Positions 27,176-59,812 are shown, counted from the stretch's first letter. The stretch is DNA of 64,000 nucleotides from an uncultured Chloroflexia bacterium (GCA_963728205.1 CAVSIV010000001.1:512001-576000), one strand, 5' to 3'. Notes: generated from the letters alone by a model not told the origin. Program-made: numbers and translations.

Positions 27176-28255
27176 GTGGATTCCGCCTCCCAGGCCGCGC
27201 TGACCGGTCTCTCGATCACGCTGGCATCCCTGCTCCCGCCGCCGGCGAGCCCCGCCTTCACGCCCGCGGTGAGCCTCGTGCGCGTCGACGTGCGGCCGAC
27301 CGGCGTGGGCGGATTCATCGCCTTCGCGCATGACCCGGAGGGCGAGGTCCTCGGGCGCCGGGTCGACGCGGACGCCGTGGTGACCACGCGAGCGCACACG
27401 CTCGAAGACCTCGACACCACCGTCCAGAACACCGTTGCCGCCGTGCTTGCCGCCGACCGGTCGACGCTGCGTGCGCAGGGCGTGCTCACGATCGCGCTGA
27501 CGGAGCTCGGCCCCAATCCGGCCGGACGGACCAACGGCGAGTTCGAGCGCAACCTCACCTTCCACGTGCTCTACGAGTTCCTCCAGCAGCCGACGGCCCC
27601 GTCGGGCGTGATCGACCGCATCCCGCTCGACATCGAGGTCGGGCGCGGCCAATCGAAGACGCTCATCGACACGACGTTCGGCGCCGGCTCGCTGGACCTG
27701 TTCGAGGTCGTCGACGACGCCGCCGCGACGACGTCGGCCCCCTCGGCCTGGGCCGTCAACGCGACCGAGGAGCGCATCGAGCAGACCTCGCGGATCCGCG
27801 GGGGCGGGACGACGGCGACCCCGAACAAGCCCGGCACCGCGCTGGTCCTCCGCTCGACGCCGGTGCTGCCGCCCGTGCGCGACTTCTCGCTGCGCGCGGA
27901 GGTCGCCGCCGGAGACATCGGCGGGATCGGCCTGGTCTTCCGCTGGCAGAACGCCGACAATTTCTACTTTTTTCTCATGGAGAGTCGGCGGGATTTCCGC
28001 ATGCTCGGGAAGAAGGTGGGGGGTGCGTTTGCGGCGTGGGACGCGCCGGCGGTCGACGCGACGCAGGGGTTCGCGGTCGACCAGGCGATCCAGGTGCGGG
28101 TCTCGATGGAGGGCGATGCCGCCCAGGCCTATCTCGACGGGCAGCGCGTGCTGGACGGGCGGGACGCCTCGCTCCCCGGCGCGGGTCGCGTGGGGTTCCT
28201 GAGCCGGGACTGCGCGGCCGCGTTCTTCGATCGCATCAACCTGAGCCAGTGGTAG
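27176..28255 (+). CDS. Putative tail cap/terminator (Pvc16/DUF4255-like) fused to a lectin-like beta-sandwich domain
   Basis: First gene before the sheath; C-terminal GIGLVFRWQNADNFYFF...GRVGF resembles ConA/TSP-C/DUF1080 folds; the N-terminal assignment is positional. Confidence 0.45.
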   Translation: MDSASQAALTGLSITLASLLPPPASPAFTPAVSLVRVDVRPTGVGGFIAFAHDPEGEVLGRRVDADAVVTTRAHTLEDLDTTVQNTVAAVLAADRSTLRAQGVLTIALTELGPNPAGRTNGEFERNLTFHVLYEFLQQPTAPSGVIDRIPLDIEVGRGQSKTLIDTTFGAGSLDLFEVVDDAAATTSAPSAWAVNATEERIEQTSRIRGGGTTATPNKPGTALVLRSTPVLPPVRDFSLRAEVAAGDIGGIGLVFRWQNADNFYFFLMESRRDFRMLGKKVGGAFAAWDAPAVDATQGFAVDQAIQVRVSMEGDAAQAYLDGQRVLDGRDASLPGAGRVGFLSRDCAAAFFDRINLSQW

Positions 28256-28286
28256 CGGCCCGCGGCGCGGGCGAAGGGGAGCCAGG

Positions 28287-29375
28287 ATGGCAGAGACATT
28301 CACGACCGCGGAGCTAGTGATCCCCGGGACGTACCTCCGCGTACGCGCCGAGGGTCTGATCGGCGTCGGCGGCATCTCCACCGGCAACGTGGGCATCGTC
28401 GGGACGGCCGCGCAGGCGATCGACGAGACGCACAACGTGAACGACTACGAGACGATGCGCACGGTCTTCGGTGCGTACGACGACTACGCCTCCGGCGCCG
28501 GCACGCTGAACCTGACGCGCGCGGCCGAGGTGCTCTTCCGCAACGGCGCCCGCAACGTCTACGCGCGCGGCCTGGCCGCCGGTGCCAACCAGTCGGCGTT
28601 CAGCGACGCCTTCGCGGAAGTCGTGAAGGAAAACGTCAACATCGTGATCGCGCCCGAGCTGTCGACGGATGATGCGCTCGCGGTGCTGGGGCCCGTGCTC
28701 GAGACGGCCGAGAACAGCAACCAGGACCTGATCGCGGTTGTCGGTTCGGACGCGACGGCGGTCACCGACATCGTCGCGCAGGTGCCGACGAACGACCGGA
28801 TCATCTTCACGGCGCCGGGGCTGCAGGCCTTCGACTCCGCGGCCGCGGGCGGCGCCGGGGCAAACGTCGAGCTCGACGGCCGCTACGGCGCGGCGGCGAT
28901 CGCCGGCCTCGTCAGCACGCTGACCCCGGAGTCCAGCCCCACGAACAAGGTGCTGCCCGGCGTCACGCGCCTCTCGCAGCGCTTCTCCTACGGCGAGCTG
29001 CGGCAGCTCGTGCAGAACCGCGTGCTCGCCATCGAGGAGCGGCGCGGCGTCCGCGTGGTGCGCGGGCTCACCAGCGACGACGGCGCGTTCCAGCAGGTGA
29101 CGACGCGCCGCATCACGGACTTCGCGAAGGCCGGCATCCGGCAGGCCGGCAATGCGTTCATCGGCAAGCTCAACAACCAGCGCGTGCGCAAGGCGCTGCA
29201 GGGCGCGATCGACGGATTCCTCACGACGATGGTCGTGGACGAGCAGCTGGTCGGCTACAGCCTGTCGGTGACGGCGACGCGGCGCGACGAGATCGAGGGC
29301 CGGGCCATCGTCAACGTCGTGATCCAGCCCACGTTCAGCATCGACTTCGTCGCGGTCACCCTGGTGCTGGAGTAG
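28287..29375 (+). CDS. Contractile tail sheath protein
   Basis: N-terminal IPGTYLRV...VGIVGTA; SPTNK.L; VRVVRGLT; VTTRRITD..FIGKLNN; C-terminal IQPTFSIDFV.VT. Confidence 0.92.
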   Translation: MAETFTTAELVIPGTYLRVRAEGLIGVGGISTGNVGIVGTAAQAIDETHNVNDYETMRTVFGAYDDYASGAGTLNLTRAAEVLFRNGARNVYARGLAAGANQSAFSDAFAEVVKENVNIVIAPELSTDDALAVLGPVLETAENSNQDLIAVVGSDATAVTDIVAQVPTNDRIIFTAPGLQAFDSAAAGGAGANVELDGRYGAAAIAGLVSTLTPESSPTNKVLPGVTRLSQRFSYGELRQLVQNRVLAIEERRGVRVVRGLTSDDGAFQQVTTRRITDFAKAGIRQAGNAFIGKLNNQRVRKALQGAIDGFLTTMVVDEQLVGYSLSVTATRRDEIEGRAIVNVVIQPTFSIDFVAVTLVLE

Positions 29376-29384: not shown

Positions 29385-29891
29385 ATGGCAAACATGAACG
29401 TCTTCACCGGCGCCGACGGCTCGATCACGCTGTCGGCGGGACAGGGCACCGAGGGCGAGCGCGCCCAGGACGTGCTGACGGCGTACGACCTGATCGCGGT
29501 GGGGCGCGCGCAGAGCGTGCACGTCGAGGTGCACTCCGAGGTCCGCGCGTTCAACGAGATCGGTCAGCGCTACGCCACGCAGCTGCGGGCGGGCAACGTG
29601 ACCGTCTCCGGGACGATCGGTCGCGCGTACATCAACGGCGCGCTGCTCAAGCTGCTGCTCGGCGAGGCGGCCGACAGCCGGCCGGCCGCGAGCTGGGCGC
29701 AGCCGTCGTTCAACATCACCCTGCTCGCGCAGGACGCCGCGAACCCGGGGATCACGAGCACCGTGACGATCCACGACGTGAAGATCACGGACTGGGTTTA
29801 CGACATGCCCGAGGACGCCTTCGTGCTGGAGGACCTGCACTTCCAGGCGCTCTACCTGACGGTCGCCGACGAGGCGTCGGCGCCGGCTTGA
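29385..29891 (+). CDS. Tail tube protein
   Basis: 168 aa immediately after the sheath; VGRAQSV..EIGQR..GNVTVSGT; PEDAFVLEDLHFQA. Confidence 0.8.
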   Translation: MANMNVFTGADGSITLSAGQGTEGERAQDVLTAYDLIAVGRAQSVHVEVHSEVRAFNEIGQRYATQLRAGNVTVSGTIGRAYINGALLKLLLGEAADSRPAASWAQPSFNITLLAQDAANPGITSTVTIHDVKITDWVYDMPEDAFVLEDLHFQALYLTVADEASAPA

Positions 29892-29919: not shown

Positions 29920-30402
29920 ATGCTTTCGGCCGACCAGATCCTCGCTGGCAGCGCGCTGACGTTCGCGGTGGAGGTGCCCGAGCGGCTCCTCGCGCTCGAC
30001 GGCGCGCTCCCGCCGGAGGGCGAGGCGCGGAGCGTGCGCCTGCGCCCGCTGAGCGTCGGCGACCTCCAGCTCGTGATGCGGGCCGCGGAGGAGAGCGACT
30101 CGCTGCTCGCGACGCTGATGGTGCAGCGCGCACTCGTCGAACCCGCGCTCAGCGTCGCCCAGGTGGCGACGCTCCCGGTCGGGCTCGCGCAGTTCCTGCT
30201 CGCGCGCGTGAACGAGCTGAGCGGGATCACCGCCGCCGCGGACGAGCTGGCGGCGGCGGTCGAGGACCCGCTCGTGCGGGCGGCCTATGCCCTGTCGCGC
30301 GAGTTCGGCTGGACGCCGCAGCAGATCAACGAGCTCACGCTGGGGCAGATCCTGATCCACCTCCGGCTCATCGGCGAGCACGCGGGCGATGACGGCGCGT
30401 GA
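29920..30402 (+). CDS. Tail assembly chaperone-like protein
   Basis: VRLRPLSVGDL...ALVEPALS.....LP.G....L...V.ELSG, plus a C-terminal FGWTPQQINELT tail; position after the tube. Confidence 0.7.
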   Translation: MLSADQILAGSALTFAVEVPERLLALDGALPPEGEARSVRLRPLSVGDLQLVMRAAEESDSLLATLMVQRALVEPALSVAQVATLPVGLAQFLLARVNELSGITAAADELAAAVEDPLVRAAYALSREFGWTPQQINELTLGQILIHLRLIGEHAGDDGA

Positions 30403-31588
30403 CCCCGTCCGCGACGCCGGGGAGCCGGCGGTGCTTCGCGCACGCGTGCTGCTCGCCGCGCTGCGCTCCCCCGCGCCCAGGGCGCGCGCCGCGCTTCGCG
30501 CCGTCGACGACCTGCGTGCGCTGAGCGAGCCCGGCCCGGCGTCGACGCTCGGCGGCTTCGCGCCGTTCGCGTCGCTTGCGGGCGTGGCCGAGGCGTCCGT
30601 CGGGACGCCGCCCGGCATGCCCCCCGGCGCCCCCGCGCCCGAGCGCGCGCCCCGCGCGCGCTCGGCGTCGGCGGCCACGTCGCTGCCCCCGCGCGCGTCG
30701 ACGTTCTCGCCGCCCCCCGGGTTCCGGGTGCCGGGCGTGCCGGGCGGCGCCGAGGTCTCCCGGCCGGGTGCTCCGACGGCGGCCAGCGCCGCCGCCTCGG
30801 CTCCGCGCTCCACGGAAGCCGGCGCAGCTGCGGGCTCGTCGCGTGCCGCCGGCACACCGCCGCGTCCGGCCCCGGTCGCGTCGCGCGCCGCACCGGGAGC
30901 GGCCCCCCGGCCAACGACGCCCACCCCGGCCGCGTCCCGTCCCGACGCGCGCGGCGCCCCCGCGCCCATGGGACCGCCGTCGGCGGCGGCGTCGCACGCG
31001 TCCGCGCGGCTGGCCCGCGACGACGGCGCCGCACGGCCGTTCGCGGCGACCTTCGCGCCGCCGGGCTCGCCGGCACCCGCAGCCGGCCGCCCGTCACCCG
31101 CACCATCGCCGCGCCCGGACGCGCTCCCGCCGCAGATGCGCGCACTGCTCGCGGAGCTCGTCGACGCCGCCCTGCGCGGCTCCGCCGGCGCCGGCGCGCG
31201 GCCGCGCGCCGGGAACGGGCGCGCGCGAGCGCGCGCGCCGTTCGGCGCTGCACCCGAGTCCGGGCCGGCATCGCCCGCGCCGGCGGCGCGCGCGCCGGGC
31301 GATGCCGCCGCGGCCACCCGGCGCGGCGGCCGCTCCTTCGCGCCGGCGCACGCCGCTCCTGCCACGGCGCTCGGCGCCGATGCCGAGAACCCGGCCGGCA
31401 CCCGCCCCGGCGCCGGCCGCGAGCGTCAGTCCCCGCTCGCGCCGTCAGCTCCCGCAGCGACGGCCAACGACTCGGCTGCGATCAACCGCGCGATCGCGGC
31501 GGGCCAGTCCGACCCGCGGGCCCTCGCCGCGCTCGTCAACGACGCGCTGATCGAGCAGGCACGCCGGCACGGGGTGGATCTCTCGTGA
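30389..31588 (+). CDS. Low-complexity Pro/Ala-rich protein of the tail locus
   Basis: Overlaps both neighbours (14 nt and GTGA); ordered C-terminal helix ALVNDALIEQARRHGVDLS; middle is probably disordered. Confidence 0.55.
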   Translation: MTARDPVRDAGEPAVLRARVLLAALRSPAPRARAALRAVDDLRALSEPGPASTLGGFAPFASLAGVAEASVGTPPGMPPGAPAPERAPRARSASAATSLPPRASTFSPPPGFRVPGVPGGAEVSRPGAPTAASAAASAPRSTEAGAAAGSSRAAGTPPRPAPVASRAAPGAAPRPTTPTPAASRPDARGAPAPMGPPSAAASHASARLARDDGAARPFAATFAPPGSPAPAAGRPSPAPSPRPDALPPQMRALLAELVDAALRGSAGAGARPRAGNGRARARAPFGAAPESGPASPAPAARAPGDAAAATRRGGRSFAPAHAAPATALGADAENPAGTRPGAGRERQSPLAPSAPAATANDSAAINRAIAAGQSDPRALAALVNDALIEQARRHGVDLS

Positions 31589-32185
31589 ACGTGCGACCGG
31601 TGCTGGGCGACTGGGAGATCCCCCGCGTCGATCTCGATCGAGGCGGACGAGCGACGCCGCCTCGTCGAGCTCGCCGTGCCGGGGCGCGTGGGGAGCCTCT
31701 ACCAGGATCTCAGCAGCGAGCCGACGCGCATCGTCATCCGCGGCAGCATCTTCGGGGACGAGGACCGCGACGACTTCCTCCAGCAGGTGCGCGGGAAGTT
31801 CCAGGACGGCGCGCCGGTCACCTTCGTTGCCGACATCGTGACGGCGACGCAGGTCCAGTACGTCGTGATCGAGACGCTTGAGTTCTGGGAGAGCGGCGGG
31901 CGCCCCGACGAGCTCGCGTACCACATCGAGCTGCGCGAGAGCCCGCCGCCGCCGCCGCCGCCCGATCCGCTCGGCGGGCTCGACGCCGGCCTCCTCGACC
32001 AGGCGGCGGGCTTCCTCGACACGGTCACGGGCGCGCTCGACGTGATCGACGGGCTTGGCAACGTGCCCGATCTCGCCGACCCGACGCCCCCGCTGCACGG
32101 CGCCGTCTCCGGCGTCACCGACGCGATGAGCGGCCTGGGCGACGCGCTCGGCCCGCTGCGCGACGTGTTCGGGAGCGACTCGTGA
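31585..32185 (+). CDS. Tube-initiator / DNA-circularisation-N-like protein with an apparent +1 frameshift near 31635
   Basis: MNVRPVLGDWEIPRV/IEADERRRLVELAVPGRVGSLYQDLSSEPTRIVIRG resembles the Mu gpN-like N-terminus. Confidence 0.6.
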
Positions 32186-32222: not shown

Positions 32223-35200
32223 ATGCCGGACGGCACGCTCACGGTCAGCCTGAACGACCTGCAGGGGGCGCTGAGCGGGGTGGTCGGTCTGCTCGGCGAG
32301 GCCGACGCGAGCGGCGGCGGGACGAAGTTCGCCGGCGCCGCGAACGTCGCGAGCGCCGCGCCCGGCGACCAGGTGCAGCAGTTCGGCGCCACCTTCACGG
32401 CGCAGGCGCAGGGGGCGCTCAGCTTCGACCCCGGCGCGATCGACCAGGCGACGACGCTGCTGACCCAGCTGCAGTCGCAGCCGGGCGTGCCGACCGATGC
32501 CCTCGATCACTTCGTGGAGCGGCTGACCACCGCCGGCGACGCCTTCGGCGGCGACCTCGTCGGACACATCGAGGGCGCGCTGACCGCGATCCGCGGGCTC
32601 TCCGGCGGCATCCCGACCGATCGCACGGCGGTCGTGAGCGCCCTGCTCGATCAGATCCTCTCGGTGATCGGCGCGCTCGACGGCCCCGAGGCCGCGCAGA
32701 TCCGCGCGTGGGCGCAGTCGGTGCAGGAGATGCTTCGCCTCGTCGGGCCGCTGATCGAGCAGGCGAGCGCCGCCGGCGACCCGTCGTCGATCGCGGTCGC
32801 CGTCAGCCGGCGCGCGCTCGAGAGCGCGCTCGAGGTCTTCGGATTCCCGCAGGTGCAGCGCCTGCTCACGCTCTTCGACGAGTTCCCGCTGAACGCGCTG
32901 CCGTCGGCCCAGCTCGACGCGACCGGCGGCGCGCTCACCACCGTCTCGGCCGGCTACACGGCGCTCGCCGGGCTGGCATCCGCCCCGTACCCGCAGTTCC
33001 GCGACCAGGCCGTGGCGCTTGCGGCCGACATGGAGGCGCTGCGCGTCGCGCTGCGGCCGGTGCTCGGCGGCATCCGCCGCGTCGCCGACGCGCCGATCCT
33101 GCAGCCGGGCGCGCTCGAGGCGTTCCTGCGCCAGCACATCGACGAGGCGCTCGGCGTCCAGGTCACCGAGGCGCAGCGCATCGACGACCCGTTCCAGGCG
33201 CTCTTCGACCGCATCGACGCCGCCATCGACGGCATCGACCTCTCGGCGGTGCGCGACTCGGTGCTCGGCTTCTTCGAGCAGACGCGCAGCGCGATCGAGC
33301 AGCTCGACGTCCCGTCGCTCGCCGACACGCTCGCGACGCAGCTCCAGGCCGTCGACGGGGTGATCGGGGATCTCGAGTCCGGCGTGACCGGGACGCTCGA
33401 CGAGGTGCGGTCGTTCTTCGACGACGCGACCGCGCAGGTGCACACGCTCGCCGAGCAGGTCGGCAGCTTTGCCGGCGACGGCAGCTTCCACTTCGACGCC
33501 GAGGCGCAGCTGCGCGGCGCGCTCGTCGCGGCGCGCACCGCGATCGGCGGCGATCCCGCGAACCCGTCGGCGCCGAGCGTGCGCGGCACGCTCGAGCAGT
33601 TCCGCGACACGCTCGACGGCTTCCTCGGCCAGATCAACACGCTCCTCGGCGGCGTCGCCGGCGAGATCGACGGCGTGCGCAGCGCCGCCGTCGACGGCGT
33701 GAACGCGTTCCGCGACTTCGTCACGGGCCTCGACCTGCCGGGCAAGGTCGAGACGCTGCGCGACCAGGTGCAGGCGATCCTCGACCAGCTCGGGCCGATC
33801 GACTTCTCGGCGGTGGTCGACCCGGTCGTCGAGGGCATCAACGACAACACCGGCAAGCTGCGCGACATCGACACGTCGTCGCTCAACGAGCTGCTGCGGC
33901 AGGCGCTCGCGGCGGCGCTCGACGTCGTGATCAGCATCGACTTCACCGCCGACATCAGCGCGCCGCTCGACGAGGAGTTCCAGGCCGCGAAGGACGCCGC
34001 CGCGCAGCCGGTGGCCGAGCTGCAGCGACGCTACGAGGACGCCGTCGCTCAGCTCGACCAGCTGAGCCCCACGCAGCTGCTGGAGGGGCTCTTCCACGCC
34101 TTCGACACGATCGACGCGGCCGTCGGATCGCTCGATCTCACGAATCTGCTCGCGCCGCTCGACGCGCTGCACACGCAGTACCTCGTCGATCCCGTCGCCG
34201 CCCTCAAGCCGTCGACGCTGCTCCAGCCCGTGGTCGACGCGCAGCGCGCGGTCGTCGACCAGTTCGCATCGATCGACCCCGCGGCGCTGATCGCGCCGTT
34301 GACCGGGCAGCTCGACGCGTTCAAGTCCCAGGTCGCCGCGTTCGACGTCGCGCAGCCGGTCGAGGACCTGCGGCAGGCGGTCGCGAAGGTGCGATCGGAC
34401 ATCGGCGACCTGCACCCGTCCGACCTGCTCCAGCCGCTCGTCGACGACTTCGCGCGGCTCGAGGGGCTGCTCGACCAGTTGAGCCCCTCGGTGCTGATGG
34501 CGCCGGCCGCGCAGCTCGCGACCCCGCTGCTCGCCCTGCTCGATCGTGCCGACGAGGCGCTGATCACGGCGCTCCACGACCTCTTCCAGGCGCCGCTCGC
34601 CGCGCTCGACCGGCTGCGCCCGAGCACGCTCGCGCAGGAGCTCTCCGACAAGCTGAACCAGGTGATCGCGGCGATCCGCGGCATGAACCTGGCGTCGCGC
34701 TTCAACCAGCTGAAGGGCGCCCACTTCGACCTCATGGCGTCGGTGCAGGCGGGCGGAAGCCAGGCGCACCTCGGGTTGGTGATGATCCTCGACCCGCAGC
34801 GGCAGCTCGGCGCGATCGTCGACGCGCACAACGCGCTGCTCACGCGGCTCGAGCAGATCCGGGACGCGCTCGTCTTCCCCGACCTCGAGCCGCTCTTCGA
34901 GCAGGTGCAGACGCGGATGCTCGCGATGCTCCCGCCCTATGCCCGCGAGCTGCTCGACCGGGACACGTTCCTGCGCGTGATGCGGCTCGCCGACCCGACG
35001 CGCTTCCTCGGCGAGCTCGACACGCGCTTCCAGGCGCTGAAGGACAAGCTGATCCCGATCCGACCCGCCGACATCGCGGCGGAGCTCGACGCGTCGTACA
35101 ACGCGCTGCTCGCGGTCGTCGACGGGCTCGACATCGACGCGGCGCTGGGTCGCATCACCGACACGCTGAACCGCATCAAGGGCGTCGTCGCCGGCGTGCG

Positions 35201-35654: not shown

Positions 35655-35673
35655 TGTCGCGGGAGGTGCGCTC

Positions 35674-39882: not shown

Positions 39883-39967
39883 CCCCCTCGGCGCGGGAGG
39901 CGCGTGTGGCGCGTGTGGCGCGATCGATCACGCGACGGCGGACGGGCCGGGTGCGGGAGGTGGCCGC

Positions 39968-41775: not shown

Positions 41776-42171
41776 ATGGGGCAGCCGGCGGCGAAGCAAG
41801 GCGACCAGGTGATCGGCACCGACATTCATATCGTGATGATCCCGTCGCCCGGCGGCCCGGTGCCGACGCCGCTGCCGCACCCGTTCGCGGGACAGCTCGA
41901 CGGCAGCCTGAGCTCGGACGTCAACATCGAGGGCAAGCCGGCCGCGGTGGTGGGGAGCACCGCGACGAACAGCCCGTCGCACGTGCCGCAGGGCGGTCCG
42001 TTCCAGAAGCCGCCCGCGAACCAGGGCACGGTCCAGCTCGGGAGCATGACCGTGAACATCAACGGCAAGGGCGCGGCGCGCGCCGGCGACATGGCGATGA
42101 CCTGCAACGACCCGGCGGATGCGCCCGTCGGCAGCGTCATCGCCGCCGGCACCGTCATGATCGGGGGATAG
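41776..42171 (+). CDS. PAAR-domain spike tip protein
   Basis: PAAKQGD, V.IEGKPAA, VNINGKGAARAGD...C and TVMIGG motifs. Confidence 0.95.
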   Translation: MGQPAAKQGDQVIGTDIHIVMIPSPGGPVPTPLPHPFAGQLDGSLSSDVNIEGKPAAVVGSTATNSPSHVPQGGPFQKPPANQGTVQLGSMTVNINGKGAARAGDMAMTCNDPADAPVGSVIAAGTVMIGG

Positions 42172-48764: not shown

Positions 48765-48781
48765 CGGAGGAGGTGCCACCC

Positions 48782-50458: not shown

Positions 50459-52269
50459 ACGTCGACGCCGTCGCGAGCACGCCGGGCGCCGGCGCCGGGC
50501 CGCTCACCGCGCGGACGCTGCTCACCCCCGCCGGCGCCGCGCCGCGCGTCGTGTACCGCGACGTCTCGTACGTGCGGCTGGCGCCGGGTGCGCTCGCCGG
50601 GTCGCTCGCGCTGGACGCGGCCGCATGTGCCCTCGGCGGCGCCTTCACCAGCTACGACTTCGACGCGCTCGCGATCGCGGAGCCGACGCTGCAAGCCTCG
50701 ACGCGCAGCCTCGGCGGAGGCACGGTCGCGGTGGAGCTCGGCGCGCCGCGTCGCCTCCGTTCGATCCAGGTCGCTCACGGCAAGGTGCCGTCGACCGGGT
50801 ACACGCTCGAGGTCTACCGGCTCGACGGCGACACGCCGTCCGGCCAGCCGACCACGACCGCGACGAACGCGATCGAGACCGCCAACGTGGTCGGCGAGGC
50901 CGTCGTCGTCGGAGGTGCGGGCGGGGGCGACGTCGTGGCCGGGGCGACGGAGAACGCATACGTGCTCGAGGCCCGCCGCACCTTCTGGGTGGACTTCACC
51001 GATGCGCGCTTCGCGCTGCGGCTGAAGCAGCCCGGCGGGGGCTACGTCACGAGCCTTGCGCCCGGCGACGTCGACGTCGTCTCCGTGCGCAGCTACCCGT
51101 CGTCCCCGCGCGTGCGCGTCGCGTTCCCGCAGGACCCGGCCTCGCCGGTGGGCGACCCGACGGCCGCAGTTCCGGTGTGGCAGGCGGCCGGGGAGATTGG
51201 CGGCGCAGTGCCGGCGACCGCGGGCACCTTCGACGCCGCAGACGCGCTCGCCGACGCACTGGCGCGTGGCGCGGCCCGGCTGGCGGATGCCGTGCAAGCG
51301 TCGGCGTCGGCGGCGTCCCCGGTGCCGCCGCTCCCGCCGACGATCGACGTCGCGCTGGTGATCGAGTCCGACGCCCCCTGTCGCTTCCAGCCGGCGGGGT
51401 TCGCGGTCGCCTACCGCCCGGTGACGAGTGCATTCGCGAGCGGCGAGGAGAAGGCGACCGTGCGCTTCGCCGGCGCGGGCGCGGCGGCGAGCGCGCCGAG
51501 CGTGCGGCTCCCGGGCGGGGCGACCGTGGTGTCGGCCGAGCTGCGCGCGACGCCGAGCCTGCGCACCGGGCGGCCCGGCGGGGTCGACGCCGCGGCGGCA
51601 TCCGCGCCGCCCACGAGCCGCGCCGGCATCCGTGTCGGCGCCGGCCGGCAGGCGGCGCAGGTCGTGCAGCCCGACGCGGCGCTCGAGGCAACGGGGTTCC
51701 TCCTCGGCGTCATCCCGCTCGACGACGGCGTCGAGTTGCACGCCGCGCTCGTCGAGGACGCCGGCGGGGCGCCGGCCGGCCGCGTCCTCGCGGAGGGGAC
51801 GCTCGCGACGGGCGTGCCCGGGCGGCCGGCATGGCTGAGCTGGCGCCTCGACGCGCCGCTCGTCGTCACGACCGCGCGCCACTGGGTGCGGCTCGCGGCG
51901 GCCAGCGGAGAGGCGGTCTGGTTGAGCGCCGCCGGCTCCGGCCCGGCGTGCGCGCTGGCCGATGACGGCTCGACGCTCGCCACGCTCACGGACCGCGACC
52001 TGATGGTGCTCCCGGTCGTCGGCGCCGGAGCGAACGGCGGCCCGCCCGGCGACGCGGCGCCACGCCTGGACGTCGCGGGCATGTCCGTCAGCGCGAGCGC
52101 CGGCGCGGACGGCCGCCTGGTCTACGACCTGGCCGCCGCGTTGACTGCCGCGCTCACGGGGCAGCCGCCCGGCGCGGTCGTGGAGGTACCGCTGTCGTTC
52201 GCCTCGCCGGCGCCGGGTTCGCTCACGGTCTACCCGCCGCGAATCGAGTTCGAGCCAGCGACCGCGTGA
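50455..52269 (+). CDS. Hypothetical beta-rich protein of the tail locus
   Basis: GTGA overlap with the upstream gene; GC3-biased frame; no recognised motif. Confidence 0.65.
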   Translation: MNVDAVASTPGAGAGPLTARTLLTPAGAAPRVVYRDVSYVRLAPGALAGSLALDAAACALGGAFTSYDFDALAIAEPTLQASTRSLGGGTVAVELGAPRRLRSIQVAHGKVPSTGYTLEVYRLDGDTPSGQPTTTATNAIETANVVGEAVVVGGAGGGDVVAGATENAYVLEARRTFWVDFTDARFALRLKQPGGGYVTSLAPGDVDVVSVRSYPSSPRVRVAFPQDPASPVGDPTAAVPVWQAAGEIGGAVPATAGTFDAADALADALARGAARLADAVQASASAASPVPPLPPTIDVALVIESDAPCRFQPAGFAVAYRPVTSAFASGEEKATVRFAGAGAAASAPSVRLPGGATVVSAELRATPSLRTGRPGGVDAAAASAPPTSRAGIRVGAGRQAAQVVQPDAALEATGFLLGVIPLDDGVELHAALVEDAGGAPAGRVLAEGTLATGVPGRPAWLSWRLDAPLVVTTARHWVRLAAASGEAVWLSAAGSGPACALADDGSTLATLTDRDLMVLPVVGAGANGGPPGDAAPRLDVAGMSVSASAGADGRLVYDLAAALTAALTGQPPGAVVEVPLSFASPAPGSLTVYPPRIEFEPATA

Positions 52270-52311
52270 TCACGCGGGGCCCGCGAGCCCCGCCGGATGA
52301 GGAGTCGCAGG

Positions 52312-53172
52312 ATGCCCGATGGATGGATGCCCGGCGTGGAGCATCTCCCGAACCCGGCGCACGGCTACGCGTCGCTCCCCGACGGGAGCATGCGCCCGAT
52401 CGCGATCGTCAACCACATCATGCAGGGCTTCAAACGCACCATCGATCGCGAGGTGCGGGCGGGAATCGCCGAGCTCTCCGAGCACTTCTCGATCGATCGC
52501 GACGGGAACATCACGCAGTACGTCGACATCTTCAGCGGGGCCTACCACGCCGGCCGTCTCGACCCCGGCGCGCCTCCGACCTGGCCCCGCTATCGGCCGA
52601 ACACGAACCCGAACCTCTACACCGTCGGCATCGAGCACGAGGGGTTCGCGGTGCAGCCGCTGTCGTACAAAGCCGACTACGTGTACACCGAGCAGCGCCC
52701 GTGGCCGGAGCCGATGGTGCTCGCGACGATCCGCGTCCAGCGATGGATCTTCGACACGCTCGGCGCGGCGGGAATGCCGCAGGAGCCGAGCCACCTGACG
52801 GTCATCGGGCACAATGAGATCGCGCCGATCTCACGGTTCTCGGACCCCGGTCCCCTGTGGCCGCGCGACCGGATCATCACGGCGCTGAAGCCGCAGGCGG
52901 TCGTCTCGCCGATGCCGTCGTTCACCGAGCTGGTGTACATCCGCGCGCTCGCGCAGTTCCTCGGATGGGAGAAGTTCGACTGCCAGCCGGTGCCCTGCGC
53001 GCGCGAGGCTCGCACCTACCACCTGACGTTCGAGGCGCCCGACCCGCCCGATCAGCAGCACGCGGATCTCGAGCGCCAGTACCTGCAGGCGCTCGGCTTC
53101 CAGTTCCACTACACGCGGATGCGCGTGAGCCCGCTGGAAGGGCGCCGCGGATACGAGCTCGACATCACGTAA
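52312..53172 (+). CDS. N-acetylmuramoyl-L-alanine amidase (Amidase_2)
   Basis: IVNH, HFSI..DG.I.Q.V, AYHAG, N..TVGIEHEG and VIGH.EI.....DPG motifs; AGGAG RBS. Confidence 0.88.
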   Translation: MPDGWMPGVEHLPNPAHGYASLPDGSMRPIAIVNHIMQGFKRTIDREVRAGIAELSEHFSIDRDGNITQYVDIFSGAYHAGRLDPGAPPTWPRYRPNTNPNLYTVGIEHEGFAVQPLSYKADYVYTEQRPWPEPMVLATIRVQRWIFDTLGAAGMPQEPSHLTVIGHNEIAPISRFSDPGPLWPRDRIITALKPQAVVSPMPSFTELVYIRALAQFLGWEKFDCQPVPCAREARTYHLTFEAPDPPDQQHADLERQYLQALGFQFHYTRMRVSPLEGRRGYELDIT

Positions 53173-53274
53173 CTGCAGTGACGCGCGGGGGCGCGCGGCG
53201 ACGGAGAACGACGCCGAGCGCGGGCGGCACGCGATGCCGCGAGTGTGCGGCCGGGTGGGTGGGAGTCGCGGGGC

Positions 53275-56200
53275 ATGCCCTACATCACGCTGGGACGCGA
53301 GGTCGTGCGCGGCACGATCTCGCGCGATCACTGGCGCGCCGACGTCACCCTGATGTGCTCCGACCGCTTCCCGGCCGGCGCCGCCGCGCGCCTCTTCGTC
53401 GAGATCCGCTGGCGCGCCCGCCGCGACGAGGGCGACGTCCCGGGGCTCCCGGAGGACGCGAAGCCGATCGTGCTCACGCTGCGCAAGCGCACGGCCGCCG
53501 CGACGGGGGACGTCCGGTTCGACGCCCGCGACGGGGCGACCACCCGCGGGTTCGTCGGCGACACCCGCGCGCTGCTCACGCTCTTCGCGCAGGCTCCCAC
53601 GAGCGGCGCAGAGCCCGACGTCGTGCTCGAGGTGCGCATCGAGGGCGACGTGGCCGGGAGCGTCCCGCTCTCGGTCGACGGCGGTGCCGCCGCGCCGGCG
53701 ACCGCCGTCGTCCTCCACGACGACACCGGCGCGGCGCCGGCGCACGACATCGTGCTGCACGAGGCGACCGTCGCGCTGCGCGCGGCGGCCGCGCCGGTCG
53801 CGCCGGGCGCCTTCCGCTGGGTGAGCGTGCGGCCGGACGCGCTCCCGCTCAGCGGCGGGCCGGAGGGCGAGCGGGTCGAGGTGCGCGGCGCGCTCGTGAG
53901 CGACGCCGTGGGCGACGCGCCGGTCTGCGTGCTGTTCACCCCTCGCGACGGCGGTCCGGCCGTGATGGCCGTCCACGCGGTCACCGTCGCGGAGACGCGG
54001 GTGCTTCTGGGCGACAGCGGCGAGGTGCCCGCGCCCGACCTGATCGGGGTCGGCGCCGGCGAGACCTTCCGCGCCGTGACGCGGCCGCCCGCGCTGGCGC
54101 AGGCGGTGTCGTGGCGCTTCGCCGCCGGGGCCGAGCGCACCCGCGTCGCCGGGCGCTCCGACCTTGCCGCCGCGCGGATCGAGGGGGTCCGCGCGAGCGC
54201 GGCCATGCACGACGTGCAGGCCGTCGCGACGATCGCGACGGGGCACGTGCCGGCGTCGCTCGCCGTGACGCATGACCTCACGGTGACGTCGGTGGTCGTG
54301 GTGCGCGCGGACGGGAGCGGGCTACCGGCGTTCGTGAACCTCGGGGAGACGGTGCCGGTGCTGGCGCGCGTCACGCCCGACGCGCTCGCTCGCGATGTCG
54401 CCTGGGCGGTGGTGCCGGGGCTCGGGAGCGCGGCCCGGGCGCGCGTGCAGCCCGTCGCGGGCGCGGACCGCGCGCGCAGCGCCGAGCTCGCGCCTGCGGC
54501 GTCCAGCGCCATCGACGCTCGCGACGACATCCGCCTCACTGCCGGCCTCGCCGGCGCCGACGGCGCGACGGTGGCGTCGACGGTCGTGTCCCACCCGTTC
54601 ACCGTGACGCTCGTCCGGCCGCTGCATCTCGCGGTGCCGCCGGCCGACCTCGCGACGTGGACGCTCCAGCAGGCGTACGGCCCGGGGACCGCCGGGGCGG
54701 CGTTCCACGACCGCGCGCTGTTGCGCACGACGGGTGCCGGGCGCGTCATCGCCGCCGCCGACGGGACGCTCTCGACGCATCCGCCCGGGGTCGGCGTGGC
54801 CGCGCCGCCCGACCCGGCGACGCCGGCCGGGCCGCCGCCGCCGGCGGTAACCCTCTACCTGCACCTGGCGCCGGCGATCCGGGACCGCGCCACCGGTTTC
54901 CACGCCCGCGCGGCGGGCCTCAACGGCGTCGCCGGCTTCGTGTACGACCACCTCGAGACGGCGTCGCTCGAGGCGGCGCTCGGCGATCTGCTCGACCGCG
55001 CCGAGGGCCCGGTCGCCGGGCTGGGCCGCGCGGAGCGCGTCGCGCTCCTGGTCGCCGGGCAGGCGACGGTCCCCGTCACGGGTGGCCACGCACTCGGTGC
55101 CGCCTCGCCGGACGGCGCCCCGGCCGGCCGCCGCGATCTCGGTCTGGGCGTGCTCGCCGACGACGGCGCCATCGACCCCGCGTTCGCGTACGACTGGATG
55201 CGCGACTTCGTCGCCGACGGCCAGCCTGCCGTGGACGCCTTTCTCGCCCTTGTGCCGCGCGGGTGGCCCGTCATTGACCCAACGCTCACGGTCGACCACG
55301 CGATCGACCTCACCGGCGACGCGCTCTACCCGATGGCCGTGCTCGCCGACCTCCGCCGGCGGTACGCGCTTACGACCGCGCAGTGGCGCACCGTCGGCGA
55401 CAATCAGAAGGCGCTCTGGCGGCGTCGGCTGCTGCGTCGCGCCGGGTTCGCGCCGGCCGGGGACACCGCGCCGCCGTTCGAGTTCGACGATCGCGACTGG
55501 CAGAACCTGTTTCAGCTGGAGGCGCTCGTCGAGTTCTACGTGAACTTCGACGACCCGCATCGGCCGCCGCCCCTCGTGGCCGGGGAGAACGAGCCGCGCC
55601 CCCCGCTGGAGGCTGACGGCGTGACGCCGACCCCGGGGTACCGGGCCATCGACCTCACCGGGGGCTGGCACATCGTCGTCGTCGACGCCTTCGGCGGGCG
55701 GCTGGCGGGCGCCGCGGCGACCGTCGCCGGCTCCGTCGTCACGCTCGACGGCGCGCCGGATCTCCGGCGCGTCAATCCCGGGTTCGACACCATCTACCTG
55801 CCGGGCGACCACGAGCGGCCGGGCGCAACCTACCGGGTCGCCGCCGCGAACCACGCCGCGTCGACGGTCACCGTCGACGGCGCCCCCGACTTCGCCGGCG
55901 GCACGTCGGCGTGGCACCTCCCGGCCGGCGTGAGCGGCGAGCTCCCCGCGCTCGCGTACAACCTCGGCCCGGGCGGGGCGCGAGGGTTCGACCACTACGA
56001 CGCGGCGCTCTTCGTCGTGAAGGACGGCGCCGTTCACGCGAAGTTCCGCTGGTCGAGCTACACGTCGCGCAACTACGCCGCCGGCAGCCAGCTCCTCTCG
56101 TCGCTGCGCGGCAACCGGCAGTACGACTTCGCGAGCTTCCGGTCGAACAGCGCCTTCATCAACTACGCGTTCAGCGTCGTCGACCACGGCGCCGCGTACG

Positions 56201-56604
56201 ACGGGGTGCGCGAGGCGCGCTTCTACTTCGCGACCCCGGTCACGGCCGACGCGGCCGCGCCGGGCGCGAATCCGAACGGCGGCGGCAAGACGCTGATCCG
56301 CATTCACAACGGCAACCACGGCAACCTCGCGCCCGGCGCGGCCGCGGCCGGCGGGACGGGATCGGCCGGGTGCATCGTGTCGCCGTCGTTCTACGACTTT
56401 CGCGACGTGATGATCACGCTCTTCCAGGCGGACCGGGTTGCCGCCGCCGGTGCGCCGGATCCGCACGTCGCGCAGCTGCAGGGCGCGGGCTCGGTGGCGA
56501 GCGGGGCACTGCTCGCCGCGAACACCGTCACCGCCGCGCAGTGGAACAACCGGCTCACCGGATCGTTCTGGGCGATCCGGCCGGACGAGCGGCCGCTCGG
56601 ATAG
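53275..56604 (+). CDS. Putative CIS cargo/accessory protein A: shared N-terminal module, Ig-like repeats, C-terminal YkuD/Tlde1-like domain
   Basis: N-terminus homologous to the 56707 gene; C-terminal LIRIHNG...GSAGCIV matches the L,D-transpeptidase H...S.GC motif. Confidence 0.65.
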   Translation: MPYITLGREVVRGTISRDHWRADVTLMCSDRFPAGAAARLFVEIRWRARRDEGDVPGLPEDAKPIVLTLRKRTAAATGDVRFDARDGATTRGFVGDTRALLTLFAQAPTSGAEPDVVLEVRIEGDVAGSVPLSVDGGAAAPATAVVLHDDTGAAPAHDIVLHEATVALRAAAAPVAPGAFRWVSVRPDALPLSGGPEGERVEVRGALVSDAVGDAPVCVLFTPRDGGPAVMAVHAVTVAETRVLLGDSGEVPAPDLIGVGAGETFRAVTRPPALAQAVSWRFAAGAERTRVAGRSDLAAARIEGVRASAAMHDVQAVATIATGHVPASLAVTHDLTVTSVVVVRADGSGLPAFVNLGETVPVLARVTPDALARDVAWAVVPGLGSAARARVQPVAGADRARSAELAPAASSAIDARDDIRLTAGLAGADGATVASTVVSHPFTVTLVRPLHLAVPPADLATWTLQQAYGPGTAGAAFHDRALLRTTGAGRVIAAADGTLSTHPPGVGVAAPPDPATPAGPPPPAVTLYLHLAPAIRDRATGFHARAAGLNGVAGFVYDHLETASLEAALGDLLDRAEGPVAGLGRAERVALLVAGQATVPVTGGHALGAASPDGAPAGRRDLGLGVLADDGAIDPAFAYDWMRDFVADGQPAVDAFLALVPRGWPVIDPTLTVDHAIDLTGDALYPMAVLADLRRRYALTTAQWRTVGDNQKALWRRRLLRRAGFAPAGDTAPPFEFDDRDWQNLFQLEALVEFYVNFDDPHRPPPLVAGENEPRPPLEADGVTPTPGYRAIDLTGGWHIVVVDAFGGRLAGAAATVAGSVVTLDGAPDLRRVNPGFDTIYLPGDHERPGATYRVAAANHAASTVTVDGAPDFAGGTSAWHLPAGVSGELPALAYNLGPGGARGFDHYDAALFVVKDGAVHAKFRWSSYTSRNYAAGSQLLSSLRGNRQYDFASFRSNSAFINYAFSVVDHGAAYDGVREARFYFATPVTADAAAPGANPNGGGKTLIRIHNGNHGNLAPGAAAAGGTGSAGCIVSPSFYDFRDVMITLFQADRVAAAGAPDPHVAQLQGAGSVASGALLAANTVTAAQWNNRLTGSFWAIRPDERPLG

Positions 56605-56706
56605 CCGGCCGCGCCTCGGCGCGCGTGCGCCGGGCCACGCGACGCCCGGGCGCGGCTATCCTGTGCCGAGGCCGGTCGTGATCCAGTGCAGGGTGAGGAG
56701 CGCGAC

Positions 56707-59700
56707 GTGGCCTACCGTCCGCACGCCGGCAGGAAGATCGTGCGGACGACGCTGACCCGCGACGACTGGGTCGCCAGCGTGACGCTCGCCTGCTCCGATC
56801 GCATTGCGGTCGGCGCGTCGTCGCCGCTCTTCGTCGAGGTGGCGTACCGCCACGAGCCCGCGCCGGGCGCCGACAGCGGCCACCCGGTCGATCTCACGTT
56901 CCGCTCGCTCGCCGCGGGCGGGGGCGAGATCCGGTTCGACGCCGCCGACGGCCCGACGACGCGACGCTTCGTCCGGCATGTCCGCACGGTGCTCACGCTC
57001 GTGGGCGTGACCGCCACCGCCGGCGCCGAGGCCGGCGTTGCGATCGATATCGCGATCGACGGGACCGTGAAGGAGAGCGTCCCCCTGTTCGTCGGCGCGC
57101 CGCTCGGCACGCTCGCGATCCGGGCCGCCGACGGCACGGCCGACGCGCCCGCGGAGGTCACGCTCGGCCAGACGCTGCCGCTGCGCGCCGTGCCCGACCC
57201 CGCCGCGCAGGGGACGTATCGCTGGATCGTCGTGACCGAGGACTCGCTCGCGGCCCACGGCGCGACCGACGCGGCCGCCGTCGTGCTCGGCGTGACCGGC
57301 GGCGCCGCGCTGCCCCGCACGGTGGGCTGCCTGTTCTCCCCGCCCGACGACGGTCCGCAGGTGTTCACGGTGCGCGCATTCGGCGTCCGCGCGACGCTGC
57401 TCGTCCGCACCCGCCTCGTCGGCACCGCCCCGGCACCGCTGGACGACGCCTGGGTGTACGTCCGCGACGGCGGCACGACCGTCGTGCTGCACACCGACCG
57501 CCGCGGCCGCGCGCGCTCCGCGCCCACCGGTTCCGAGCGCGCGGCGTCGTGGCTCTATACCGAGCCCTTCGGCGCGACCGCCGGCCACCCCGTGGAGATT
57601 GCCTTCAGCCGCGGCCGGAAGCCGATTCCCGACACACTCGTGCAGGCCGAGCTCGCGTTCCGGCGGCTCGACGTCGCGGCGGAAACCGCCGACGGCGACC
57701 TGGTCGGCGCGGTCACGATCCCGGAGACGCCGCTCGCGTTGACCCGACCGGGCGAGCTCACGATCTGGCCGTTGCTGCGCGAGCTGCCCGTGGACGCCTC
57801 GCTCACCGCCGGCCTCAACCAGGGCGCGGCGCTCTACGACGCGCACGGCAACCTCACGGAGCCCGAGGGCACGGTGGCGGCGCCGCCGCCGGCGAGGCCG
57901 CGCGAACGCGGGCTGGTCGTGGCGGGCACGGTCGATGCCGGCGCGACCGGCGCGCGCGTCCGGCTGATGCGCGACGACGGCACCGCGCTGCCGCTGCACG
58001 CCGGGTTCGCCGCCGCCGCGTCGGTGCTGGAGCTGCCCGCGACGATGGGCGCTCCGGCCGGGGCGACGCGGCCGTTCTCGGCGCTCATCGTGCTCGACGA
58101 CGCGGCCGCCGCATTCGGGCCGGTGCTGATCGTGGTGGACACCGTCGGGATCGCCCCGCCGCGCGTCGACGCCTTCGCGGTCCAGCTCTGCGGCGTGCAG
58201 CTCGCACTCGTCGACGACGCCGTCGCCGCCGCCGACGGCACACACGCCGGCCCGGTCCCCGGCGAGCCCGACGAGCTGAACACGATCGACTTCGGCCTGT
58301 CGCCGCAGGACAACCGCAACGACCTCACGCTCCAGGCGCGCGCGCGGCGCATGGTGAACTACGACATCCGCACGGGGACGCGCGCGTTCGACGAGACGGC
58401 GGCCGTCGGCCCCGGCAACCCGAACGTGCCAAAGCCGCAGATGCCGCTGTGGATGGGCGAGTGCCAGCTCGTCGGGATCGGGTGGGCGGATCTGCAATCG
58501 CTGATGCGCCACCGCGTGGCCTGGGTCAGCCGTGCGCCCGCGTGGTCGACGCTGGAGCTCAATCTCTCATGGCGGATCGAGCTGCGCTGGGACGGACCCG
58601 ACGTCAACTCGCCCACGTTCGCCGGACCGCCAGAGCTCATCCTGCGGTCGGGGCAGACCTACCAGTACAGCCTCGCGCTCGGCGGCGATGCGGCGCTCCG
58701 GGTTCCGTTCGACGCGCAGGGACGCCCTCTCGACGCCACCGGGGCGCCGCAGGCGCTGGATCACGGGGCGGTGCCGGCGCCGTTCACCGCCGCCCCGGCG
58801 CGCATCGCGTACCCGGTTGCCGCGCGACGGCTGCCGCGCCTCGTCGTGCAGGGCGAGCAGCGTGCGTGGGGACGGCAGGCCGGCGCCCCCCGGCGGGACT
58901 CCGTGATCGTCGAGTTCCAGCCCCGCGTCGAGGCCGGCGGCAGCGAGGCGATCCGCGGCGGAGATGGGGATCTCGCGCTGCAGAGCCTGCAGATCGATGG
59001 CGCCGCCGCCCCGCCGGGGCTCGAGCCGGACGGCGGCGGGGCGCCGGTCGCGCCCGCGGACGTGCGGCCGGCGCGCGTGCCGACGTTTCGCGTGCGCGGC
59101 ACCAACCCGGCGGCGCACGCCGCGGTCGAGCAGCTGATCGACGCGCTCGTGCGCCAGTACCACGACGCGCACGCTGCCGAGGCGCGCATCGCCACGCTCC
59201 CGCTCGCCGTCTGGCAGGAGACGGTGCGGCTGATCCTCGCGCACGAGAACGGCAACGACCGCCAGTTCTTCGACAACGCGAGCGGCCGCTACGCGTTCGC
59301 GTCGCGCGGCACGACCTTCTACTACGGGCACGAGCACCGCATGCCGTTGTTCGGCCCGCCGCACGGCTACGGGTTCGGGCAGCTCGACTTCGTGTTCGGC
59401 CGCGCCGCGAACGACGACGAGGTCTGGAGCTTCGTCGAGAACATCCAATCCGCGGTGCGGGTCGTGATGGAGGAGAAGGCCGCGGCCGCCTACCACGACA
59501 TGCACGGGCACTTCGCCGCGCCGGTCTCGCGGCGCGACCGGGCCGCGTACCGCCGCGAGGTCGTGCGGCGCTACAACGGCGGCACGGAGTTCCACTGGAA
59601 CGGCGCGGACTGGGAGATCCAGCCGGGCCTCGCGCAGTGGGCCAACGCGCACGATCACACGCAGGGGCCGAACCAGCGGCTGCGATACCCGCGACCGCGT

Positions 59701-59812
59701 GCTCGGCACCCACGTCGCCTACTACAACCCGTATCCGGCCGGCGCGGGGGCGGCGACGACGTTTCCGTGGCCGATCGCGTTCGCGGTCGGCCAGTTCGGC
59801 CCGGGGATCTGA
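56707..59812 (+). CDS. Putative CIS cargo/accessory protein B: shared N-terminal module, C-terminal lysozyme-like domain; apparent +1 frameshift near 59691
   Basis: ILAHE...QF, GYGFGQL, W....NI..A and RRYNGG lysozyme/SLT-like motifs; the corrected frame reads YP/DRVLGTHVAYYNPY...FGPGI* with stop at 59810-12, just before a convergent gene. Confidence 0.65.

Follow-up and report, generated by a model that had tools for sequence, protein, structure and literature searches.

The Afp/PVC-type extracellular contractile injection systems (eCISs; subtypes Ia-IId of Chen 2019 and Geller 2021) are headless, chromosomally encoded and built from sheath, tube, gp25-like, PAAR, baseplate J and VgrG-like parts; variable genes for large enzymes or toxins accompany them, and their spread across phyla is patchy. 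Passages of Chen 2019 state that Afp1/5, 2/3/4, 7, 8, 9, 11, 15 and 16 are encoded by more than 85% of eCIS loci and that the screen, by the authors' own statement, excludes other phage-tail-like operons. The R-type tailocins (R-pyocin, diffocin) are also headless, with one short sheath, one tube and a phage-like gene order, and type VI secretion systems (T6SSs) combine a contractile sheath and tube with a VgrG-like hub and spike, PAAR and a gp25-like (TssE-like) protein. In Mu-like myophages, the order of the tail genes is sheath, tube, chaperone, tape measure, hub, spike, gp25-like, J-like and I-like. Here we describe a locus of 20 genes in a stretch of 64,000 nucleotides from an uncultured Chloroflexia bacterium (GCA_963728205.1, CAVSIV010000001.1:512001-576000), this whole stretch being called the window below and positions being counted from its first nucleotide. 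All 20 genes lie on the plus strand, span 27176-59812 and are mostly tightly packed or slightly overlapping (Table 1). The locus probably encodes a contractile tail that lacks a head, in other words a contractile injection system (CIS), of a family distinct from Afp/PVC-type eCISs, known R-type tailocins and T6SSs. It is likely that this family, known here from its genes alone, is both distinct and functional.

Comparison with known contractile systems

Five hallmarks of the Afp/PVC-type systems were compared with the locus. One of them, the presence of sheath, gp25, baseplate J and PAAR genes, is shared, whereas the other four fail, there being no ATPase encoded in the locus, no Pvc16_N cap, a VgrG that is split, and a tape measure gene that lies upstream of the baseplate genes. 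For the ATPase, the AAA family (PF00004) has 24 matches in the genome of origin (4.13 Mb in 6 contigs, 89% complete, 5.6% contamination) and none inside the window (C1:512001-576000), in agreement with the initial annotation of the stretch, and none in the loci of six relatives, which were retrieved over 30-40 kb for Paracoccus, Thauera, Roseomonas, a Euzebyaceae metagenome-assembled genome (MAG) and a Caldilineaceae MAG, and over 32 kb for a Desulfobacter MAG. For the cap, Pvc16_N (PF14065, DUF4255, Afp16) has no match in the genome of origin at E<=0.1, and as a positive control the same family was found in 55 of 301 genomes of the phylum, one of which (G232) is flagged as unpublished. Also, an alignment (hhalign) of the family of g01, a candidate for the cap, with Pvc16_N gave a probability of 0.1%. 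As to VgrG, the hub g09 corresponds to positions 53-349 of VgrG_rel (NCBIfam, E 1.4e-13) and the spike g10 to positions 419-538, so that hub and spike are two halves of VgrG on separate genes, in the window and in its relatives, as had been proposed. Further differences from the Afp/PVC-type systems are the single sheath and single tube, a tube that does not match the T4 gp19 family, and the conserved extra genes g01, g05 and g14-g17.

A divergent member of one of the described Afp/PVC-type subtypes would share sheath, tube, gp25, PAAR, J and VgrG-like parts with this locus, and classical eCISs are common in the same phylum, to judge from Pvc16_N. However, this reading has to accommodate the missing locus ATPase and cap, the split VgrG and the displaced tape measure gene, when Afp15 and Afp16 belong to the set encoded by most eCIS loci in the passages of Chen 2019 cited above. 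Moreover, supplementary file 12 of Geller 2021 (eCIStem), in the entry concerned, gives Candidatus Vecturithrix as 1 genome with 0 eCIS, and the UASB270 genome (Candidatus Vecturithrix granuli according to its source) carries the system described here, with a sheath 68-70% identical; the lineage is thus not counted by eCIStem. Membership in a described subtype is therefore very improbable. As a separate observation on the phylum, some of its genomes carry two or three Pvc16_N copies a few kb apart, and Pvc16_N with its 55 of 301 sampled genomes compares with 3 of 401 for the lineage described here.

The sheath points in the same direction. The 362-residue g02 is the only sheath gene in the genome, and the family profile finds sheaths of the Protein Data Bank (PDB) as remote matches only, namely PlPVC1 (E 7.2e-8), Afp3 (1e-7), Pvc3 (2.4e-5), R-pyocin (2.1e-4), Anabaena CIS (3.1e-4) and diffocin (7e-4). 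Among 50,697 phage records, eight match the sheath at 25-30% identity, six of them over only 40-44% of the protein; seven belong to Bacillus phages (including jumbo phage G) and one to a haloarchaeal virus. With R-type tailocins the locus shares the absence of a head, one short sheath, one tube and the phage-like order and, in this copy, an endolysin-like gene. In contrast to them, it lacks any near relative among the phages (sheath identity reaches at most 30%, over part of the sequence), no holin or regulator was recognised at the locus, large enzyme genes lie inside or beside the operon, and the family extends over at least 10 phyla at 52-74% identity, compared with one genus. As to a lysis cassette, no holin family was matched, and the Amidase_2 gene that is present is not conserved in the relatives.

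The tail module of Mu-type myophages resembles the locus in gene order, and an ESM Atlas lead connects g06 with the N-terminal domain of Mu gpN. Nonetheless, head, neck and DNA-handling genes are lacking here, no Mu protein family reaches significance, and the gpN-like domain precedes the tape measure instead of following it. The T6SS has in common with the locus the sheath and tube, the VgrG-like hub and spike, PAAR and the gp25-like protein; unlike in the T6SS, VipB/TssC has no match in the genome, a search for membrane-complex genes confined to the open reading frames (ORFs) of the locus found none, the locus has no neighbouring ClpV-type ATPase, and a tape measure and a J-like wedge are present. 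The distinct CIS lineage suggested in the initial annotation is upheld by the four differing hallmarks, by the remoteness of the sheath matches, by the eCIStem entry for Candidatus Vecturithrix and by the lack of any phage sheath above 30% identity. A literature search returned no description of this lineage, in a coverage of subscription journals that is thin, so this is not proof that none exists.

Distribution of the family and the prophage alternative

The family was searched in one genome per species of 185,579 species. Search patterns were matched by 349 stretches, 327 of which encode a relative of the sheath; among 8000 candidates scored, 1112 sheath homologues were obtained at E<=1e-3, the best 120 at 63-100% identity. 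The 80 best loci were used for synteny by tblastn with the window proteins, later genes being limited by the 10-kb flank, and 79 of them entered a sheath tree together with the sheath of the window. Identity to the latter is 52-74% across the family, in at least 10 phyla. Among the 79 relatives, ten phylum labels occur: Pseudomonadota (27), Thermodesulfobacteriota (13), Chloroflexota (10), Acidobacteriota (8), Actinomycetota (5), Gemmatimonadota and Cyanobacteriota (4 each), and Nitrospirota, Myxococcota and Deinococcota (one each). The tree requires 22 phylum changes against a minimum of 9, supporting a family that is conserved and, as far as sheath sequences tell, horizontally spread. The nearest sheath, with 74% identity, belongs to a Nitrospirales genome, where the locus has 47% G+C compared with 74% here; therefore, the transfer is not recent. 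Cultured carriers include Paracoccus sp. S-4012, Thauera mechernichensis TL1, Roseomonas sp. 18066, Teichococcus deserti M3 and Sulfitobacter sp. D35.

Gene order is maintained over these distances. Sheath and tube were found by tblastn in all 80 loci, g04 in 77, g01 in 73 and g06 in 67. In the loci of at least 20 kb, the order sheath, tube, g04, g06 is present in 35 of 35, and g01 stands before the sheath in 34 of 35. The six relatives with wider loci all contain hub, spike, PAAR, gp25, J, g14 and g15; g16 is present in every one but Roseomonas. The Caldilineaceae stretch starts at the hub and covers hub to g17; the other five also have g01, sheath, tube, g04, g06 and a tape measure of 1131-1180 residues. 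Of the four relatives for which the entire locus was retrieved, three have the full set from g01 to g16, and the fourth, Roseomonas, gave no g16 match. Beyond cellular genomes, five IMG/VR contigs have sheaths at 29-44% identity, and the four at 37-44% keep the same order. No plasmid-borne member was found, the 24 plasmid records that match doing so only over the C-terminal 35-45% of the sheath at 24-31% identity.

The host is supported as a member of the Chloroflexota, as the initial annotation supposed, and the base composition of the locus is that of its host. The system is a rare acquisition there, with a relative in 3 of 401 genomes of the phylum and 2 of 401 of the class (the genome of origin being counted in both) and in 0 of 25 of the family; judged by its sheaths, it is not confined to this host but spread over at least 10 phyla. 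In the same phylum, a sister sheath with 44% identity was seen in two genomes of one genus (L097 and L098, in G149 and G228; 6.5-6.8 Mb).

A split or degraded prophage, of which the locus would be the tail portion and whose head genes would lie elsewhere, is favoured by the gene order, which is that of a myophage tail module, and by the endolysin-like amidase. Also, a relative from a Bryobacterales MAG has two ORFs of the phage integrase family directly upstream of g01 (L012, 7118-8780), these being the only mobility genes beside the nine loci examined; in nine of nine relatives, the 9 kb upstream of g01 hold unrelated housekeeping genes that differ in each. However, HK97 capsid, TerL_ATPase, Terminase_6N and Phage_portal have no match in the genome of origin (89% complete), while controls matched in known genomes, and the scan for capsid and terminase thus leaves the initial finding of no head or packaging genes intact. 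Moreover, among 29 genomes of relatives with the locus on a contig of at least 100 kb, searched for TerL_ATPase, Terminase_6N and HK97 capsid (portal not among them), 21 have none of the three families (TerL_ATPase is found in 1, Terminase_6N in 5 and HK97 capsid in 6), and none of the matches shares a contig with the locus, apart from those in G423 at a distance of 331-336 kb. Each of these 29 genomes has one sheath copy. In five relatives, the 49 ORFs downstream of the system include no head gene and no AAA+ ATPase. Along with the synteny and sheath identity kept across 10 phyla and the distance from any sheath in the 50,697 phage records, these data contradict a split prophage, which can hardly be credited.

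Predicted gene products and the state of this copy

Genes were called from the third-position GC signal; the G+C of the window is 70-79%, and raw ORF lists are full of spurious frames. Identities were assigned by profile searches against Pfam, PHROG, NCBIfam and PDB, by AlphaFold2 with Foldseek, and by ESM Atlas.

Table 1. Genes of the locus, with window positions, assignments and the evidence for them
Gene	Positions	Strand	Residues	Assignment	Evidence
g01	27176..28255	+	359	First conserved gene of the operon; C-terminal lectin-like beta-sandwich	Directly upstream of sheath in 73/80 loci
g02	28287..29375	+	362	Tail sheath	PF17482 E 7.5e-10; phrog_279 E 2.4e-25
g03	29385..29891	+	168	Tail tube (modelled)	Fold match; in 80/80 related loci
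g04	29920..30402	+	160	Putative tail assembly chaperone	Position only: between tube and tape measure in 77/80 loci
g05	30389..31588	+	399	Ala/Pro/Arg-rich low-complexity protein	A 28.6%, P 16.3%
g06	31585..32185	+		Hub adaptor candidate (LysM-like or Mu gpN-N-like)	In 67/80 loci; intact part 31676-32185
g07	32223..35654	+	1143	Tape-measure-like	Between chaperone candidates and baseplate genes; no transmembrane segment
g08	35623..39882	+	up to 1419	NHL beta-propeller protein; C-terminal region of unknown fold	NHL E 3.7e-43; PDB NHL propeller matches
g09	40010..41089	+		Baseplate hub, gpD/gp27-like (N-terminal two thirds of VgrG)	PF05954 E 4.5e-8; phrog_196
g10	41086..41736	+	216	Spike, gpV/gp5-like	TIGR03361 E 5.4e-11; VgrG_rel 419-538; phage_P2_V E 6.9e-5
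g11	41776..42171	+	131	PAAR tip	PF05488 E 3.2e-11; 70-82% identity in six relatives
g12	42177..42656	+	159	gp25-like wedge and sheath initiator	phrog_975 E 2.7e-15; PF04965 E 3.4e-5 (below Pfam cut-off); PF10934 E 6.2e-5
g13	42679..44451	+	590	Baseplate J, gp6-like wedge	PF04865 E 6.4e-19; phrog_6 E 3.7e-41
g14	44444..47212	+	922	Wedge candidate in gpI/gp7 position	Directly after J; central Reg_prop beta-propeller E 8.3e-12
g15	47232..48764	+	510	Coiled-coil, fibre-like	No family matches beyond weak coiled-coil ones; 31-40% identity in six relatives
g16	48761..50458	+	565	Weak HHH motif and C-terminal coiled coil	HHH_3 E 1.9e-4, below cut-off
g17	50455..52269	+	604		Weakly conserved: 28-32% identity in 4/6 relatives
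g18	52297..53172	+	291	N-acetylmuramoyl-L-alanine amidase	PF01510 (Amidase_2) E 4.8e-15; phrog_670 endolysin E 2.5e-7; no transmembrane segment
g19	53245..56604	+	1119	Accessory large protein	C-terminal domain with invariant H...SxGC motif
g20	56686..59812	+	about 1040	Accessory large protein	N-terminal part paralogous to g19 (read in translation)

The initial annotation had named one short sheath, one tube, a tape-measure-like protein of 1143 residues, PAAR, gp25 and one baseplate J, and each of these assignments stands: PF17482 and phrog_279 identify the sheath, PF05488 the PAAR tip, phrog_975 the gp25-like protein, and PF04865 with phrog_6 baseplate J. The tube g03 has no sequence match in Pfam, PHROG, NCBIfam or PDB, the T4 gp19 family included, and is the tail tube on the strength of its modelled fold. 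An AlphaFold2 model from an alignment of 28 family members (pLDDT 71.7, pTM 0.64) has tail-tube proteins of phage 812, Haloferax virus HFTV1, diffocin, AlgoCIS and PVC among its top-ranked Foldseek matches in PDB (E 3.5e-5 to 4e-4, TM scores 0.42-0.57). For g07, which has no informative family match, the call as tape measure is supported by position, length and the near-constancy of that length in relatives. A complete ORF of at least 600 residues follows g06 in 55 loci, and 51 of these measure 1113-1180 residues (median 1141), the four outliers having 680, 742, 984 and 1523 residues; identity to g07 is 21-53%. The protein is taken as a tape measure because length stays constant while sequence drifts, as predicted for a ruler.

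A chaperone and a gpI-like wedge had also been proposed. Both genes, g04 and g14, are present, and it is their position that suggests the two roles. No match in Pfam, PHROG or PDB, also with the family profile, was obtained for g04, and none to a gpI family for g14. Kept in six relatives, g14 has a family profile that matches the periplasmic propellers of sensor kinases (E 2.3e-27), and its own propeller may be a receptor binder. Upstream of the sheath, g01 may be a cap or decoration protein, its C-terminal half giving a weak match to PF06439 (E 6e-4) and its family profile one to a levanase CBM (E 1.5e-3). The sequence of g05 is conserved solely at its C-terminal end, about 30 residues, a motif found in 10 loci, and the gap between g04 and g06 has a median of 1236 nt (67 loci). 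A programmed frameshift from g04 into g05 was considered and set aside: g05 starts at an ATG of its own, which overlaps the g04 end, a slippery site is not apparent, and a +1 shift would be required. For g06, ESM Atlas (score 0.93) leads to clusters carrying DNA_circ_N (the Mu gpN N-terminal domain) or the HP1_ORF34 baseplate domain, a likeness to be treated as a lead and not as a test, and the family profile found nothing meaningful in PDB. In the Euzebyaceae MAG, g05 and g06 are fused in one ORF of 522 residues (L088, 2207-3775); in the window, they share the same frame, with a single stop codon between them.

In the baseplate region, the start of g09 is uncertain (39900-40040), the frame signal shifting at about 39950. 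Identity to relatives is 41-66% for the spike and, in five relatives, 46-59% for J. A match to g16 was found in five of the six relatives, Roseomonas giving none above 45 bits. No family match in Pfam or PHROG was obtained for g17, also with Pfam at E<=1, and a Pfam search at this threshold on ten sub-regions returned nothing meaningful.

The remaining genes are not part of the conserved set. About half of the locus had been attributed to cargo or accessory genes; such genes are present, but g08 and g18-g20 occupy about 36% of its bases and family-conserved genes about 64%. The slot between tape measure and hub, occupied here by g08, is variable. Homologues of g08, which carries an HExxH motif (HEMTH, read in translation), occur in 12 of 80 loci, and the same slot in Paracoccus, Thauera, Roseomonas and the Euzebyaceae MAG holds a different, unrelated protein of 803-992 residues, in all four with a weak C-terminal match to Peptidase_M23 (E 1.1e-5 to 6e-3, all below cut-off). 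In the Desulfobacter locus, two proteins fill the slot, one g08-like of 1681 residues and one g19-like of 1895 residues, the match to g20 adjoining that to g19. The distance from tape measure to hub is 2.3-3.8 kb in 29 of the 30 loci where the hub was reached. Because a g19-like protein sits in the Desulfobacter slot, the g19 type belongs to the system elsewhere, while in the window it lies at the operon end. Neither the amidase g18, a gene that the initial annotation lacked, nor g19 or g20 is at the 3' end of the system in any of the six relatives.

The amidase may act in release, like an endolysin, or as an effector on cell walls. For the C-terminal domain of g19, 47 homologues were obtained, and H1011, S1030, G1032 and C1033 are invariant in this family; YkuD was matched by 1 of 41 family members and PG_binding_1 by 1 of 41, and one homologue is named a YkuD domain-containing protein by its source. 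A YkuD-like cell-wall enzyme is thus a lead, no more. As single sequences, g19 and g20 found nothing meaningful in PDB. Downstream of the system in Paracoccus sp. S-4012 (L083, 1215-12196), there are three Trypsin_2 peptidase genes, a gene for an Endonuclease_NS protein of 1115 residues and a GDSL lipase-like gene, these protease, nuclease and lipase genes being possible effectors of that copy.

Two reading frames of this copy appear disturbed, both overlooked at first. A motif like 'M.VKPVLGDWEIPRI' opens g06 in ten of ten relatives inspected and shares the frame of the remaining gene, whereas in the window this stretch is in another frame, with an apparent one-base break near 31630 (31585-31680). 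In g20, the coding signal lasts to about 59700 and the stop at 59812 is reached only via a frame change (59650-59812); the original frame runs on to 60777 as the antisense of two minus-strand genes. This would fit a decaying, non-functional remnant of an otherwise real family, as would the lack of the system in the 25 genomes of the bacterial family examined. However, every other core gene is an open frame of full length whose third-position GC signal is strong, identity to relatives is 52-74%, the composition is that of the host, and single-base indels are common assembly errors in MAGs, so a remnant is rather unlikely. Two public soil DNA runs contained 0.08 and 0.06 of the words sampled, mostly as short matches of other high-GC organisms; they also gave a few 151-nt contigs with 0-5 differences, and nothing informative over the g06 site.

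Around the operon, positions 1-26100 are occupied by unremarkable genes of the chromosome (MFS transporters, CrcB, a short-chain dehydrogenase, TetR, MMPL, CoA-transferases and a carboxyl transferase), and about 1 kb without third-position coding signal (26100-27176) separates the CoA-transferase genes from g01. No Rfam family was found in the whole window, this interval included, nor a sigma-70-like promoter in 26100-27176, nor a promoter or terminator of note at either end of the operon, nor att-like direct repeats flanking the locus. A 48-residue ORF on the minus strand (26629-26775), about 400 nt upstream of the operon and pointing away from it, is preceded closely by AGGAGG and encodes two hydrophobic stretches and a basic tail; its product could be a small membrane protein, while to call it holin-like would be only a guess. 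Beyond g20, two small minus-strand genes (59835-60254 and 60226-60738) share an 85-nt repeat (74% identity), and both carry a peptide motif like 'N.(D/N)ISGGR.I.I', the second also a hydrophobic stretch. Finally, ARAGORN reports a tRNA-Ala (cgc) at 14407-14489 on the plus strand, within a CoA-transferase ORF (12423-14969), which is probably a false positive.

Proposed particle and meaning of the family

A particle of the following kind may be proposed. The baseplate would be formed by the hub g09, the spike g10 tipped by the PAAR protein g11, and the LysM-like adaptor g06; the wedges would be g12, g13 and the propeller-bearing g14, and the coiled-coil fibres g15 and g16 would complete it. The tube g03 would then grow along the 1143-residue ruler g07, aided by g04 and g05, while the single sheath g02 would polymerise around it, and g01, with its lectin-like domain, would cap or decorate the distal end. 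Because no transmembrane segment is found in the conserved proteins, the particle would lie unattached in the cytoplasm and be released by lysis of the cell, to which the amidase g18 could contribute in this genome. Binding through the propeller, the lectin-like or the coiled-coil fibre proteins would trigger contraction, and this would drive the spike-PAAR tip into the target along with large enzymes encoded in or beside the operon, being the NHL/HExxH protein g08, the YkuD-like g19 and g20 and, in relatives, the M23-like proteins. The target would probably be another bacterium because most of the recognisable enzyme domains (amidase, M23-like, YkuD-like) act on cell walls. That the system is both released and antibacterial is proposed with reserve, the balance being close and tilting slightly against it.

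The same genes might instead serve a cytoplasmic CIS that acts inside its producer, in cell death or a stress response, rather than a released weapon; such systems are reported for Streptomyces. No lysis genes, signal peptides or membrane segments are conserved in the family, as would be expected in that case. On the other hand, the PAAR tip, the propeller, the lectin-like domains and the fibre-like proteins point to attachment to a foreign surface, and the variable enzyme genes, such as the Paracoccus proteases, nuclease and lipase, resemble effector sets. Neither point is decisive, and action inside the producer appears unlikely.

Several points weigh against a distinct and functional headless CIS as set out above. 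The family is known from genes only, and no RNA run with the locus was found. A tail terminator or cap, a holin and a conserved lysis gene are missing among the genes recognised, and the amidase is not found beside the system in the six relatives examined. The tube model is of moderate confidence, with TM scores of only 0.42-0.57; it is position that suggests the roles of g01, g04, g05 and g14-g17; the g19-family profile found nothing in PDB, and the M23 and YkuD assignments lie below the curated cut-offs. Also, the absence of the ATPase was checked in the window and in the loci of the six relatives only, the genome of origin is only 89% complete with 5.6% contamination, and the two frame disruptions in g06 and g20 could be assembly indels or real damage.

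A headless CIS family of this kind is widespread and uncharacterised, and current catalogues of such devices do not include it. Afp-like hallmarks, chiefly ATPase and cap, were the basis of both published eCIS catalogues, and a family without them is filtered out, as is shown by Candidatus Vecturithrix, a carrier that scores 0 eCIS. The family is large and well conserved, occurring in soil, sediment, marine and wastewater bacteria of many phyla, and since cultured strains are among its carriers, it is directly testable. As a tentative and on balance doubtful extension, it may constitute a third major branch of free CISs beside Afp/PVC-type eCISs and R-type tailocins, spread horizontally through at least 10 phyla at a fixed particle length and loading enzymes of 1000-1900 residues without a dedicated ATPase, from a swappable slot between tape measure and hub or from the operon end, which would be a new mode of cargo attachment. 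The family raises the questions of how loading and capping of a contractile particle proceed without the ATPase and the Afp16-type cap, why the ruler keeps to about 1141 residues from phylum to phylum, and whether the enzyme slot beside the tape measure is a new route of cargo delivery. If true, an ATPase-independent system that takes very large cargo would be of interest for engineered protein delivery.

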